From a virus (lineage: Duplodnaviria; Heunggongvirae; Uroviricota; Caudoviricetes): a stretch of 10,347 nucleotides of DNA. Under the pieces are notes generated by a model, which worked only from the letters and a program-made list of their open reading frames with translations, was not told the origin of the DNA and did no database searches. A program made the translations under genes and the position numbers. Position 1 is the first letter of the stretch. The number at the start of each line of letters is the position of its first letter. Location of the stretch: the IMG/VR virus record IMGVR_UViG_2529293213_000037. One strand, given 5' to 3'. This document shows positions 864 to 10,347 of this stretch, piece after piece.

Positions 864-920
864 AAAAAGGGCGGCAGAGCAGTTACGGAGTAAAACTGAT
901 ACCGCCAAATGTCACCAGAA
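864..920 (-). ncRNA. dicF: DicF-like small RNA (ftsZ-targeting sRNA of the dicB operon), including its intrinsic terminator
   Basis: The minus-strand sequence AUUCUGGUGACAUUUGGCGGUAUCAGUUUUACUCCGUAACUGCUCUGCCGCCCUUUUUU matches my recollection of DicF with about 3 mismatches. It ends in a GC-rich stem plus U-tract. Ends are approximate (+/- 3 nt). Confidence 0.7.
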
Positions 921-2592: not shown

Positions 2593-2880
2593 TCAGATAG
2601 AGAAGGGAAATTGTCGCCGAGAATGTGTCACGCTTACAATCTCAATGCTTGAAGCAGCTACTCTGTACAGGATTATGTAGTTAGGGTGGGTCACGATCTC
2701 TCTCAATCCAGAAACCCGTTCGCTTGGTGGATATAAGTACGGATGCTCAGATAGAGGTAATACCGATGTTTCAATGCGTATTTTTAGTCTACGTGCTGCC
2801 GGTGGGTTCTCCTTGGCGATGTAAGTTATGATCTGGCGCAAATCATCGCGAGCAGACGGTAGCCATAAAATGGGTAACAT
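2593..2880 (-). CDS. parE: ParE/RelE-superfamily toxin (95 aa), type II toxin-antitoxin system
   Basis: Product MLPILWLPSARDDLRQIITYIAKENPPAARRLKIRIETSVLPLSEHPYLYPPSERVSGLREIVTHPNYIILYRVAASSIEIVSVTHSRRQFP... has the ParE-family hallmarks. Its start overlaps the stop of the upstream antitoxin gene by 1 nt (TAATG). Confidence 0.8.
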   Translation of the reverse strand: MLPILWLPSARDDLRQIITYIAKENPPAARRLKIRIETSVLPLSEHPYLYPPSERVSGLREIVTHPNYIILYRVAASSIEIVSVTHSRRQFPFSI

Positions 2881-3071
2881 TACTCGCTCTTGTTAGTTAC
2901 AGCAATTTGAGCAATAAGATTTTCCATTTCAGCCATTACCTCGTCATGTGGAATTGCGGGGCGAGTGTCTGCAAGGCTTGACGTTACTTTAGTGCGCAAC
3001 CATTCGTTGTAACTGTTTTCTTGTTCGGTAGTTTCGAATTCTGAAACTATCGGAGAAAGGGCTGTACCCAT
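2880..3071 (-). CDS. paaA: Antitoxin (63 aa) of the three-component ParE system, PaaA-like
   Basis: Product MGTALSPIVSEFETTEQENSYNEWLRTKVTSSLADTRPAIPHDEVMAEMENLIAQIAVTNKSE. GAGGAG Shine-Dalgarno 7 nt upstream. Sits 27 nt after the repressor stop and is directly coupled to the ParE gene. Size and sequence resemble the PaaA2 antitoxin from memory. Confidence 0.7.
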   Translation of the reverse strand: MGTALSPIVSEFETTEQENSYNEWLRTKVTSSLADTRPAIPHDEVMAEMENLIAQIAVTNKSE

Positions 3072-3098
3072 GGCATAACTCCTCTTCTTGTACTGTGG

Positions 3099-3500
3099 TC
3101 ACGCCCGGCGGCTTTTTTGTGCCGCCAGCCACCTAGCAATGGTTTCTTCCATTGATTTTTTCTTGTCTTTGATTTCTTGAAGCATTTTTTCTTGGTCTTC
3201 CTCAGGAAACGCACTAAAAGCTTGGAGCAGTTCGCGTTGGCGAGGACCAATTTTCATCGTGTCAGGGGTGAAAATTTGCTCACACTCTTCAGGAGGCAAT
3301 AAAAACCAATGCAATGGATGCCCTGAAACCTCAACCAGTTTATCCAAACTTGAGGCTTTAGGTGTAGCCTTACCGCTGACCCATTGTTGAACAGTTTGTT
3401 GTGTCACACCAATTCTACGGGCAAGCTCAGCCTGGCTCCATCCAGTTTCCTGAAGAAGCTTGCTGATTCTGTACATAGATACTTCTAGGGCGCTCATCAT
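3099..3500 (-). CDS. XRE-family HTH repressor (DicA/RacR/PaaR-like, 133 aa); probable prophage immunity repressor and regulator of the TA operon
   Basis: N-terminal HTH (QAELARRIGVTQQTVQQWVSG) and a C-terminal domain resembling DicA. Divergent from the Cro-like gene. No Shine-Dalgarno before the ATG, and a TAAAAT -10-like hexamer sits about 7 nt upstream, so it may be leaderless. Confidence 0.8.
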   Translation of the reverse strand: MMSALEVSMYRISKLLQETGWSQAELARRIGVTQQTVQQWVSGKATPKASSLDKLVEVSGHPLHWFLLPPEECEQIFTPDTMKIGPRQRELLQAFSAFPEEDQEKMLQEIKDKKKSMEETIARWLAAQKSRRA

Positions 3501-7667: not shown

Positions 7668-7682
7668 TTGCCGGAGGCGCTT

Positions 7683-8096
7683 ATGGCAAAAGTATTTACA
7701 CAGGAAGAGCGGGAAAAAATTAAAGGGCAGGTTGTTGAGCTAGTACGCCGGAGTGGGCGCGAGACGTTACGGCAACTGGAAGCCAAGACAGGTGCGACAA
7801 GATATCTGATGAGCGTTCTTGCCAGAGAGCTGGTTGCCAGTGGCGATGTATACAACTCTGGTTACGGGTTATTCCCATCTGAACAGGCTCGTAAGGACTG
7901 GCAAAACGCCCGCAAAAAACTATCGAGGGCAAAACTGAAGAAACCGGTTGTGGTTGATCCTGACCTTATCTGGTCATTACCAGACGGAGAAATACGCCGC
8001 TATGACAGGCAATTGAACATAATTTGTAGTGAGTGCCGTAACAGTGAAGTGATGCAGCGAGTTTTGATATTTTACACAGGAGTAATGATGGAATAG
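7683..8096 (+). CDS. Hypothetical phage protein (137 aa)
   Basis: ATG at 7683 with GGAGG 5 nt upstream (the track starts at a TTG at 7668). Product MAKVFTQEEREKIKGQVVELVRRSGRETLRQLEAKTGATRYLMSVLARELVASGD.... Confidence 0.6.
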   Translation: MAKVFTQEEREKIKGQVVELVRRSGRETLRQLEAKTGATRYLMSVLARELVASGDVYNSGYGLFPSEQARKDWQNARKKLSRAKLKKPVVVDPDLIWSLPDGEIRRYDRQLNIICSECRNSEVMQRVLIFYTGVMME

Positions 8097-8447
8097 TGAA
8101 AATAACATGAAACCTTTGGATTCTGGTGTTTCAGTGGATGGGAAAAGAGCAGATACATAGAAAATGAATAGCAATAATTCACAGTCTGGATGTTGTTTGT
8201 ATGCTTATAAAATGATCCTAGTATGCATTGCCGGAGTTGAATCAGCTCCAATGAAGAAACTGAGAGGAGTATTTAGAAGATAGCTAAATGGATGTAATTA
8301 TTAGTATCTAAAAAATAGTATTTTTGAAATGGGTCTAAGAACACAACAATGTACAAATGAGAAGTTATCTTTTAATATGTTCAAAGACCCATTAGGATTG
8401 ATATCAGTTATGTTAGCTAGATTGATAAAGTGATTACATATTTTCTG

Positions 8448-9221
8448 TTATATGCTGAAATGAATAATGCTATTCCAGAGTGCAGCAGAGAAAGTCTCCT
8501 GATGATTGAGCTCTGGAAATTGTACAATAGAAAAATTACTGTATTTTTCTGTCAAAATATTTCTCAAAACAGATTCCGCTTTGATGGCTTCAGGATATAA
8601 AGATGCGGAGTAATCAAGGCTAAGATTTCCGTTAAGCAAGCATATACTTTTAGTGTGCTTTGATTCTGATATATCATCTTTAATTATCTTGATGATTCTT
8701 TCATTCTGCCATAGAAGTGATGGTGCAGATATATAATAATAGTTAAAGCATGAATTATTTTTTAAGCAATCAAGCACAAAAATAGCACCTAGCGAGTGCC
8801 CCCATATACCGATTCTGGAACTGTTCGGAGCAATAGTACTAACCCATGGCATGATCTGAGTTAGTAATAATTCTCGGAAAGACTGGCTTCCTCCACCAGT
8901 AAAGTAGATCCATGCTGGTTTAGAGTTATCAACAATAGCATTTTCACCATCAGGAGTATAATCGTAAGCACGGCGATGAATGCTAAGGTTATTCCAAGAT
9001 TCATAACCAAGTGTAACTAACACTGGTGGATTGGGTAGTGCATCAATAACAGGCAGAATATCAGAAATGTAATTGTTGGCACTATTCCCATCAAGTATAT
9101 AAAGAGTTGCATTATTTTTTTTAATGTTTTTTGGAGTAAAAATACATATTTTATATTTGGTGTCATGGTTAATTGAGTTAAATATGCGTGTTTGACAATG
9201 AATGTCCATATGTTTAGTCAT
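8448..9221 (-). CDS. Alpha/beta-hydrolase, putative esterase (esterase D / Fes / IroE-like family), 257 aa; AT-rich cargo gene
   Basis: GGGGAG Shine-Dalgarno 5 nt upstream of the ATG. Nucleophile elbow GHSLG (IWGHSLGAIF), an LDGNS motif near the N-terminus and a C-terminal NHQET candidate catalytic His. No obvious signal peptide. Roughly 30-35% GC versus about 50% in flanking phage genes. Convergent with the phage operon. Confidence 0.8.
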   Translation of the reverse strand: MTKHMDIHCQTRIFNSINHDTKYKICIFTPKNIKKNNATLYILDGNSANNYISDILPVIDALPNPPVLVTLGYESWNNLSIHRRAYDYTPDGENAIVDNSKPAWIYFTGGGSQSFRELLLTQIMPWVSTIAPNSSRIGIWGHSLGAIFVLDCLKNNSCFNYYYISAPSLLWQNERIIKIIKDDISESKHTKSICLLNGNLSLDYSASLYPEAIKAESVLRNILTEKYSNFSIVQFPELNHQETFSAALWNSIIHFSI

Positions 9222-9825
9222 GCGTTCTCCCCATGAGCATTAAAGGATGCTTAAGATATGCTATGTCACTGATAAAAAATTTGTTGTGTGTGTTTAGTTA
9301 TTTTATCTACCTCCATTATGATTTAAGACTGATATATGTTATCAGCAAAGGTACATCGTTATTATTTTACCTGTCAATACATTTGATATTGATTATCGTT
9401 TACATCGCTTGCTTAGGAAATTGAAGGCAGGTAACTATCATGTCAATGAACTAACCCACAGTCTAACGTACTTCTTTCCCCAATCACCAACAACCAAATT
9501 CCTGTTATCACCACTGGGATTTTGGCGCAACTTCATGGTGCAGAGGTAAATAGCATCAAGCAAAATCTCTTTTTCCGTTGTTGTCCTTATGGGACGTCTG
9601 TCTTTCTGACCGATTTCATATTGGCGAGGTAATGGGAAGTTAAGTAGAATAGCTGCGGGTGCTTGAGGCTATCTGCCTCGGGCATGAACACCAACGGCAG
9701 ATAGAGAAAAGCCCCAGTTAACATTACGCGTCCTGCAAGACGCCTAACATTAATCTGAGGCTCAATCTATGAACGGCAAATCTAGGTTAGCCTCTTACGT
9801 GCCGAAAGGCAAGGAGAAGCAGGCT

Positions 9826-9981
9826 ATGAAGCAGCAAAAGGCGATGTTAATCGCCCTGATCGTCATCTGTTTAACCGTCATAGTGACGGCACTGGTAACG
9901 AGGAAAGACCTCTGCGAGGTACGAGTCCGAACCGGCCAGACGGAGGTCGCTGTCTTCACAGCTTACGAACCTGAGGAGTAA
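9826..9981 (+). CDS. hokD: Hok/Gef-family type I toxin (51 aa), closest to HokD (RelF)
   Basis: Product MKQQKAMLIALIVICLTVIVTALVTRKDLCEVRVRTGQTEVAVFTAYEPEE, about one substitution from HokD as I recall it. AAGGAG upstream. The track ORF (from 9769) is an in-frame N-terminal extension. No relBE-like ORFs upstream. Confidence 0.8.
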   Translation: MKQQKAMLIALIVICLTVIVTALVTRKDLCEVRVRTGQTEVAVFTAYEPEE

Positions 9982-10050
9982 GAGACCTGGCGGGGGAGAA
10001 ATCCCTCGCCACCTCTGATGAATCAGGCATCCTCAACGCACCCGCACTTA

Positions 10051-10074
10051 ACCCGCTTCGGCGGGTTTTGTTTG
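10051..10074 (+). terminator. Rho-independent terminator downstream of the hok-like gene
   Basis: ACCCGC-UUCG-GCGGGU hairpin (UUCG tetraloop) followed by UUUUGUUU. Confidence 0.6.
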
Positions 10075-10255
10075 CGCGCTGAATGCGCAGGGTGAAAAAT
10101 AACCATATATTTGATTATATACACAACAAAAAATAAAAGTCATTGTACCTGCACATTAAATAATCAAATATACGGCGTGAAATAAATATTTTTCAGATTA
10201 ATATTTTTGTCTCTATGTGGATATAACCGTTTGTACTTATAAACTCGGAGGCATC

Positions 10256-10347
10256 GTGGAAAAAATAAAGAAACTATTTAGTTGCAAATACGCAGTCATA
10301 CGTCGTGATGACCTGTCAGTTATAGTCGAAATGGATTACTTCCCTGA
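10256..10347 (+). CDS. Possible 5' end of a gene running off the right edge (GTG start)
   Basis: GGAGG 4 nt upstream of the GTG at 10256. Open frame VEKIKKLFSCKYAVIRRDDLSVIVEMDYFP... to the end of the window. Preceded by an AT-rich promoter-like region. Confidence 0.3.
   Translation, partial: MEKIKKLFSCKYAVIRRDDLSVIVEMDYFP

Follow-up and report, generated by a model that had tools for sequence, protein, structure and literature searches.

A 10,347-nucleotide stretch of tailed-phage DNA (IMG/VR record IMGVR_UViG_2529293213_000037; the whole stretch is called the window here) carries at 9621-10073 what we judge, with a probability of about 0.92, to be a complete and apparently intact hok/mok/sok type I toxin-antitoxin cassette, cargo of a lambdoid (Qin/Sp-like) prophage. 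The cassette contains a promoter, a structured leader, the mok and hok open reading frames (ORFs), a 3′ fold-back element and a terminator, with a Sok antisense gene on the minus strand. Its carrier is of the prophage type found in Shiga-toxin Escherichia coli, with the replication genes on one side of the cassette and the nin/Q region on the other. The locus is canonical and already known: the Prokaryotic Genome Annotation Pipeline (PGAP) calls its toxin gene hokD, and the close relative in phage 933W is annotated as mokW/hokW/sokW. What the window itself shows is the full set of sequence and structure elements, backed by conservation and covariation, and a sequence nearly identical to loci that have been annotated or studied experimentally. 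Nothing in the sequence contradicts the hok/mok/sok assignment.

The toxin gene, its leader and the predicted mRNA switch

A previous examination of this DNA from its letters alone (the sequence-only reading) had proposed a stand-alone hok-family toxin locus with its own regulatory leader at 9430-10080 and had suggested an Rfam search for hok/sok elements. The feature does lie in that range, but the functional locus is narrower, 9621-10073. The search matched Rfam family RF01794 to the whole leader on the plus strand (9657-9831, 105.6 bits, E = 1e-23, model positions 1-157 of 157). With a gathering score of 59 for this family, the match is far beyond chance. The predicted toxin, encoded by a plus-strand ORF at 9826-9981, matches the full profile (1-42) of the Hok/Gef family (HOK_GEF, PF01848; E = 5.8e-23; 80.7 bits, with the cutoff at 22). 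Together, the two full-length matches bear out the proposal of a stand-alone toxin gene with a leader of its own. The 51-amino-acid product, annotated by PGAP as "hokD" (WP_000813263.1), differs from K-12 HokD by one residue (I34V) and from HokW by 5 of 51 residues. A Shine-Dalgarno (SD) sequence, AAGGAG, lies at 9811-9816, 9 nt before the ATG, so the HokD-like toxin with its own ribosome-binding site was correctly recognized.

Upstream of the leader, a promoter scan identified a promoter-like site on the plus strand at 9621-9650, with the -35 hexamer TTGGCG (9621-9626), an 18-nt spacer and the -10 hexamer TAGAAT (9645-9650). The predicted +1, G9657, coincides with the start of the Rfam model, and related loci have a -10-like hexamer (TAGAAT, TATAAT, TACAAT or TAAGAT) at equal distance from a conserved GGGTGCTTGAGG. 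At the other end, a hairpin with a UUCG loop (AACCCGC-UUCG-GCGGGUU) followed by the U-rich tail UUUUGUUU forms an intrinsic terminator at 10050-10067, as the sequence-only reading had described. The full-length hok mRNA predicted from the Rfam start and this terminator spans 9657-10073 on the plus strand, about 417 nt, and it is at about the same point (~10072-10073) that identity to both O157:H7 and K-12 hokD breaks off.

The predicted mRNA contains, in order, the elements of a hok-type RNA switch. The 5′ end is tac, the translational activator element (GGGUGCUUGAGG, 9657-9668), recognized by folding and comparative pairing. It overlaps a metastable 10-bp hairpin of the nascent transcript (9660-9684), in which 9660-9669 pairs with 9675-9684. 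This hairpin is the minimum free energy (MFE) structure of the first 30-52 nt and excludes a stable 5′ hairpin at 9669-9704, whose arms are CTATCTGCC (9669-9677) and GGCAGATAG (9696-9704). These arms are the perfect 9-bp inverted repeat already noticed in the leader, at exactly the positions given for it, and they form the conserved first helix of the Rfam consensus. The anti-SD element ucb, AAGCCCC (9709-9715), is followed by the mok SD region, GAGGCU (9757-9762), and by dcb, the downstream complementary box, AGCCUC (9789-9794). A compound stem-loop in the 3′ untranslated region (UTR; 9970-10027, core hairpin 9988-10011) is presumed to act as a road-block for 3′ exonucleolytic trimming, a role taken over from plasmid R1 (PMC1635323). 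The last element before the terminator is fbi, the fold-back inhibitory element (CCUCAACGCACCC, 10031-10043), which forms a 12-bp duplex with tac, interrupted by one bulge.

Folding of the full-length mRNA gave an MFE of -175.6 kcal/mol and a structure with paired 5′ and 3′ ends, in which tac (9657-9668) pairs with fbi (10031-10043) and ucb (9710-9715) with the mok SD (9757-9762). The tac-fbi helix stacks on the 9-bp hairpin. When the RNA was trimmed to ~10030, tac (9657-9664) paired with ucb (9709-9715) and the mok SD (9757-9762) with dcb (9789-9794). The modeled folds thus agree element for element with the hok mRNA model of R1, in which tac/fbi and ucb/SD pairing switches to tac/ucb and SD/dcb pairing (PMC9841398, PMC1635323).

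We compared these structures across 36 aligned loci from Escherichia, Shigella, Kluyvera, Citrobacter, Pseudocitrobacter, Photorhabdus and Pantoea, using slid copies of each structure as controls. Positions of the full-length structure were paired in 82.7% of cases versus 37-46% in the slid controls; 42 pairs had changed on both sides, and none of 500 shuffles reached this value. For the leader helices the figures were 82% versus 35-50%, and for the metastable hairpin 95.8% versus 30-53%, the latter with UA/CG and AU/GC covariation. The stable 5′ hairpin was 94% paired, with 3 pairs changed on both sides. In the 3′ UTR, helix 14 (the core, 9988-10011) was 88% paired, helix 13 86% and the outer helix 12 60%. 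The tac-fbi columns were 89% paired with compensatory changes. Because the Photorhabdus clade lacks the 1-nt bulge, column-wise counting under-scores the outer half of tac-fbi there, and we therefore folded the duplex locus by locus. A 12-bp tac-fbi helix formed in 34 of the 36 loci, and the two exceptions look decayed.

Covariation of one base with two alternative partners, known in the hok family as coupled covariations, was also found. Position 4 of tac, a U or a C, forms UA (22 loci) or CG (11) with its fbi partner and UA (23) or CG (12) with its partner in the metastable hairpin. At position 12 the pairs are GC (20) and AU (5) with fbi and AU (15), GU (13) and GC (8) with the metastable-hairpin partner. 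The Rfam match, the switch seen in silico and the covariation across the 36 loci together support the suggestion of the sequence-only reading that the structure of the leader represents hok mRNA folding elements.

The Sok antisense RNA and a diversity hot spot at its tail

The sequence-only reading had also suspected a Sok-like antisense region around 9700-9830. RF01794 matched the sense strand, which makes it evidence for the hok mRNA leader and not by itself for an antisense transcript; the Rfam search returned no minus-strand match, its sole "sok" match lying on the hok-sense strand. We set this match aside as evidence for Sok and mapped annotated Sok RNAs instead. The 71-nt sokW of 933W maps by ungapped alignment to the minus strand from 9777 down to 9707, and sokC of K-12 independently gives the same 5′ end, running from 9777 down to 9701. 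Both lie inside the suspected region. The predicted Sok RNA of 71-77 nt (9707-9777 for the shorter form) would begin with a single-stranded 5′ tail of 14 nt, GCCGUUCAUAGAUU, that complements the mok start and is followed by a long stem-loop and a U tail. Its fold (-34.1 kcal/mol, z = -6.3) has the same structure as that of sokW. Position and homology point to a Sok promoter on the minus strand at 9784-9812, with a -35 of TTGCCT (9812-9807), a 17-nt spacer and a -10 of TAACCT (9789-9784) that ends 7 nt before the mapped 5′ end. At the level of sequence, the window therefore contains a putative cis-encoded Sok gene that overlaps the translation start of mok.

The target of the Sok tail is the most variable part of the transcript. 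We calculated nucleotide diversity (pi) in 64 distinct IMG/VR viral-contig loci encoding a Hok with at least 96% identity to that of the window. The segment 9763-9782, which holds the Sok 5′-tail target and mok codons 2-4, had a pi of 0.305, a value that no other 20-nt window along the transcript reached. Overall pi was 0.053; it was 0.017 for the remainder of the Sok-complementary region and 0.000 for both tac and ucb. The hok coding sequence (CDS) had a pi of 0.007, a value biased downward because loci were picked by Hok identity. Among the 64 loci there were 15 distinct tail types. Similarly, 8 of the 11 leader differences between the window and 933W cluster in 9768-9781, with only 3 elsewhere in 187 nt.

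Antisense loops define the incompatibility groups of plasmids. By analogy, we tentatively suggest that the Sok tail and its target at 9763-9782 may diversify so that each hok/sok copy is orthogonal to co-resident copies in a poly-lysogenic cell. Copies with different tails do occur in the same genome (one E. coli has L004, L005 and L012; one Shigella has L007, L009 and L013), but with so many tail types this is expected by chance. Alternatively, constraint on the loop and on mok codons 2-4 may be relaxed, or old alleles may have recombined into mosaics. We found no discussion of it in the hok/sok literature covered. Tail variability is a possible determinant of antitoxin specificity in strains carrying up to nine copies.

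Predicted function and relation to known hok loci

The closest characterized relative is hokW/mokW/sokW of the Stx2 phage 933W (AF125520) and the Sakai prophage Sp5. It shares the organization and element order of the window locus, with 93% nucleotide identity over 9638-10053, and its mokW and hokW correspond exactly to 9769-9981 and 9826-9981. Like the hokW locus, the window cassette is lambdoid-prophage cargo of O157:H7. The sequences are unlike one another after 10053, so the terminators differ, and the 933W locus lies near the right end of the phage, whereas that of the window precedes the nin/Q region. Experiments have identified hokW-sokW of Sp5 as a pair of toxin and RNA antitoxin; both RNAs are seen on Northern blots, with partial dependence on RNase III and Hfq, and upon mitomycin C induction SokW disappears and HokW appears (PMC8621323). 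After mitomycin C, the pair speeds lysis and doubles phage release, and its deletion delays growth arrest and halves release (PMC8621323). More generally, hok genes are over-represented among prophages and HokD is toxic on overexpression (bioRxiv 10.1101/2025.08.07.668861).

The hok/sok (parB) locus of plasmid R1 has the same elements in the same order: tac/fbi end-pairing, metastable hairpin, ucb, mok SD and dcb. The window Sok hairpin is longer (RNA of 71-77 nt versus 64 nt in R1), and the carrier is a prophage rather than a plasmid. In R1, mok is out of frame with hok, whereas in the window it is in frame. R1 Sok likewise has a single-stranded 5′ tail that complements the mok start (PMC9841398, PMC1635323). 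HokW, which differs from the window Hok by 5 amino acids, is 44% identical to R1 Hok (PMC8621323). In classical plasmid loci of Klebsiella and Enterobacter, the only part of the cassette that blastn detects is a 47-nt segment (9784-9830) with dcb, the Sok promoter and the hok SD; the overlapping ORF in these plasmid hok loci is annotated as a DUF5431 family protein. The K-12 hokC/mokC/sokC (gef) leader can be aligned with that of the window from the -10 to the hok ATG, and its mok is likewise in frame. HokC differs from the window Hok at 10 residues and is one residue shorter; hokC lacks 18 nt of the second hairpin (the Sok stem), which is correspondingly 18 nt longer in the window, and the K-12 copy is disrupted on its 3′ side by IS186.

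By homology to hok/sok of R1 and hokW/sokW of 933W/Sp5, we infer transcription of the hok and Sok RNAs, 3′ processing, toxicity and a biological role for the window locus. A weak constitutive promoter would produce the stable mRNA of about 417 nt, and during transcription the metastable 5′ hairpin would hold the leader closed. In the finished mRNA, pairing of tac with fbi and covering of the mok ribosome-binding site by ucb would permit neither translation nor Sok binding. Slow 3′ exonucleolytic trimming would then remove fbi and allow refolding into tac-ucb and mok SD-dcb helices, presenting the mok start region. Short-lived Sok, made from the minus strand, would bind this region via its single-stranded 5′ tail, and RNase III would destroy the duplex. 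Were the supply of Sok to stop, through loss of the element, a block of transcription or prophage induction, mok would be translated and hok along with it by coupling, and the 51-amino-acid Hok peptide would depolarize the inner membrane. The cassette might serve to retain the prophage, to aid lysis upon induction (reported for hokW) or to exclude other phages.

Several observations weigh against this interpretation of the locus. The tac/ucb and SD/dcb helices are invariant (98-100% paired) and so are conserved without covariation support; ucb and dcb themselves do not vary in the 36 loci. The structures compared were taken from the MFE folds of the window itself, which favors them in the slide control. 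The promoter scan did not call the Sok promoter, whose TAACCT matches the consensus at 3 of 6 positions, and, because the same bases are under constraint from the hok mRNA structure, their conservation is not independent evidence. Finally, intact chromosomal hokA, hokB and hokC reportedly gave neither post-segregational nor rifampicin-induced killing (cited in bioRxiv 10.1101/2025.08.07.668861). An intact architecture is therefore no guarantee, and activity of the window copy cannot be assumed. The cassette might be a structurally intact yet physiologically silent passenger from which Hok is never released under natural conditions, as was concluded for those three chromosomal loci. Decayed relatives fit such a fate: tac is mutated in L005 and L046 carries a frameshift; in K-12, hokC is interrupted by IS186 and hokD is a truncated copy. 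We nevertheless consider it unlikely, although deserving of serious weight, that the window cassette is silent. All of its regulatory elements are intact and constrained, as attested by pi in the viral loci (0.000 in both tac and ucb, 0.007 in the hok CDS), and for its close paralogue hokW-sokW a phenotype can be measured when the prophage is induced (PMC8621323).

The reading frame of mok bears on its role. The mok ORF (9769-9981, plus strand, 70 codons) aligns with mokW of 933W and mokC of K-12 and is in frame with hok, making its product an N-terminally extended Hok. Across the 36 loci, the mok start lies at -57/-58 from the hok ATG in 34, with GAGG (9757-9760 in the window) before it in 34, and the ORF has 55-70 codons in 32; in L014 and L015 it is cut to 19 codons. 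Relative to hok, the 34 conserved starts are in frame 0 in 24 cases, +1 in 8 and +2 in two, the truncated L014 and L015. An in-frame mok could be merely an alternative start of the toxin gene, with a 70-amino-acid Mok-Hok fusion as the active product; translation from the mok ATG at 9769 necessarily includes all of Hok, and the same arrangement holds for the 24 in-frame loci. We regard this as improbable, because in the 8 loci with a +1 start the product is unrelated to Hok and yet start, SD and length are kept, as fits a role for mok translation in coupling and not for its product, and because hok retains its own strong SD, AAGGAG. Maintenance of these features in either of two frames suggests that what is conserved is the translation of mok rather than the Mok product, in keeping with a coupling role in the cassette.

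A further observation concerns the hok CDS. The codon for Tyr47, UAC, with a G as the next base (9964-9967), lies in a UUACGAA context that is invariant in 36/36 aligned loci. TadA A-to-I editing reportedly recodes a Tyr to Cys in hokB, and a similar phenomenon has been reported for hokC, hokD and hokE (bioRxiv 10.1101/2025.08.07.668861).

Although the window Hok is nearly identical to K-12 HokD, the two loci differ upstream. K-12 hokD (relF), in the relB-relE-hokD operon of the cryptic prophage Qin, is about 98% identical to the window, but only from 9812 to ~10072. Over this interval they share the hok SD, CDS, 3′ UTR, fbi and terminator, and both genes occupy the same relative place in a Qin-like prophage, rightward of a dicA/dicC-type immunity region. 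K-12 hokD lacks the promoter, tac, ucb, mok start, Sok target and Sok gene, all of which the window has; in K-12, relE ends 71 nt upstream of hokD, whereas in the window the sequence upstream of 9812 is a full leader and not relE. The only RelE/ParE-superfamily gene in the window belongs to a ParE/PaaA2 pair some 6.5 kb distant (2593-3071). These alignments indicate that K-12 hokD is a 5′-truncated, derived form and the window cassette the complete one. When 5426 complete E. coli genomes were searched for places covering at least 80% of the 453-bp cassette (9621-10073), 3928 had this complete form; 1173 had the relE-hokD junction seen in K-12. The window thus makes clear that K-12 hokD derives, by 5′ truncation, from a widespread complete cassette. 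The sequence-only reading had remarked on the lack of relBE, unlike K-12 Qin; the absence and the contrast with K-12 are real, but the stand-alone form is not unusual, and we reject the missing relBE as an oddity since the genome counts make its absence the rule.

The K-12 arrangement is nonetheless the model for a last alternative, in which hok is the distal gene of a longer phage or neighboring operon instead of being under its own promoter and Sok control. Such an origin of hok expression is highly improbable here, for despite the leaderless hokD directly after relE in K-12 and the 1173 genomes and the same arrangement with a different Hok in Kluyvera, the window has a full leader with promoter-like hexamers, tac, ucb and mok, this leader is preceded by a terminator-like hairpin (9582-9596), and the DNA farther upstream is a gene remnant followed by a hydrolase gene on the opposite strand. 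In the Kluyvera locus (L026, Kluyvera sp. CHPC 1.2972), the hok ATG at 1201 is immediately preceded by the 3′ end of a relE, nearly identical to its K-12 counterpart, although the Hok of this locus is only 70% identical to HokD; leaderless relE-hok arrangements are therefore not confined to E. coli hokD.

Prophage surroundings of the cassette

The window from 8100 to 10073 is 100% identical to the chromosomes of many E. coli O157:H7 strains. In the O157:H7 counterpart, PGAP labels the gene "hokD, type I toxin-antitoxin system toxin" and annotates no mok or Sok; RefSeq annotation of this locus likewise covers the hok CDS only. Identity to O157:H7 stops exactly after the hok terminator, at 10073, and the last 274 bases of the window (10074-10347) do not follow hokD there. 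The prophage module to which these bases belong encodes a 70-amino-acid hypothetical protein whose GTG start is at 10256 in the window. The bases follow another hokD allele in 173 other genomes and are also seen at 3501-3910 of L054. We therefore reject the idea that this tail is an artefact and ascribe it to ordinary prophage mosaicism; the break in identity and the tail in 173 genomes make the hok terminator the boundary of a recombination or mosaic module.

On the other side, the segment 9430-9620 contains only a remnant of about 28 codons from an ORF6N-domain gene and a terminator-like hairpin. The remnant (KilA-N-like or antirepressor-type; 9480-9566, plus strand) ends before the hok cassette and gave a Pfam E-value of 0.004, below the cutoff in strength; this weak match came from the reading 9465-9632, and PGAP treats the counterpart in O157:H7 as an incomplete pseudogene. 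Pfam searches gave no match for the small ORFs upstream of hok (9409-9549 and 9522-9632) or for the ORF start downstream (10256 onward). The plus-strand hairpin at 9582-9596, followed by a T-rich run, lies just upstream of the hok promoter and may shield the cassette against transcription entering from upstream. It was not accepted as one of the conserved parts: a few phages share it, most other hok loci do not, and its membership is uncertain. Matches to phages Evi, Tritos and mEp460 begin at 9579-9581. Farther upstream, the alpha/beta-hydrolase gene at 8448-9221 (minus strand), named by PGAP and with a weak Pfam esterase match, ends 605 bp before the hok ATG, in agreement with the distance of about 600 bp between hok and an esterase gene given earlier. 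GC content is 31-37% in the hydrolase-gene region and 45-51% in the hok locus.

The gene order of the window runs from a YdfD-like gene, DicB and DicF through the ParE/PaaA2 pair, a helix-turn-helix (HTH) repressor, a YdaS-like Cro and YdaT to the replication genes, DUF1627, DUF977, the AT-rich hydrolase island and hok, and then to the nin/Q region. The DicF small RNA gene (869-920, minus strand) is matched at full length by RF00039 (76.9 bits), and its neighbors, DicB (495-683, 7e-39) and a YdfD-like DUF1482 protein (307-498), are arranged as in K-12 Qin. Adjoining the immunity region is a minus-strand cluster (2593-3500) of a ParE-family toxin (2593-2880; PF05016, 2.7e-17), a PaaA2-type antitoxin (2880-3071; PF21217, 5e-19) and an HTH repressor-like gene (3099-3500), which we take to resemble the three-component paaR-paaA-parE type system of O157:H7. 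The growth-inhibitory genes ParE, DicB, YdfD and YdaT listed in the sequence-only reading are thus present, together with the PaaA2-type antitoxin and DicF, but their density is not unusual, since clusters of toxic small genes are normal in the early region of Qin/Rac-like lambdoid prophages. In O157:H7 strain PV15-279, an ISEc8 (IS66-family) insertion splits the DUF977 gene (L001, 7079-9391). The window gene (7668-8096) lacks this insertion, indicating that the window comes from a related prophage or strain without that insertion sequence.

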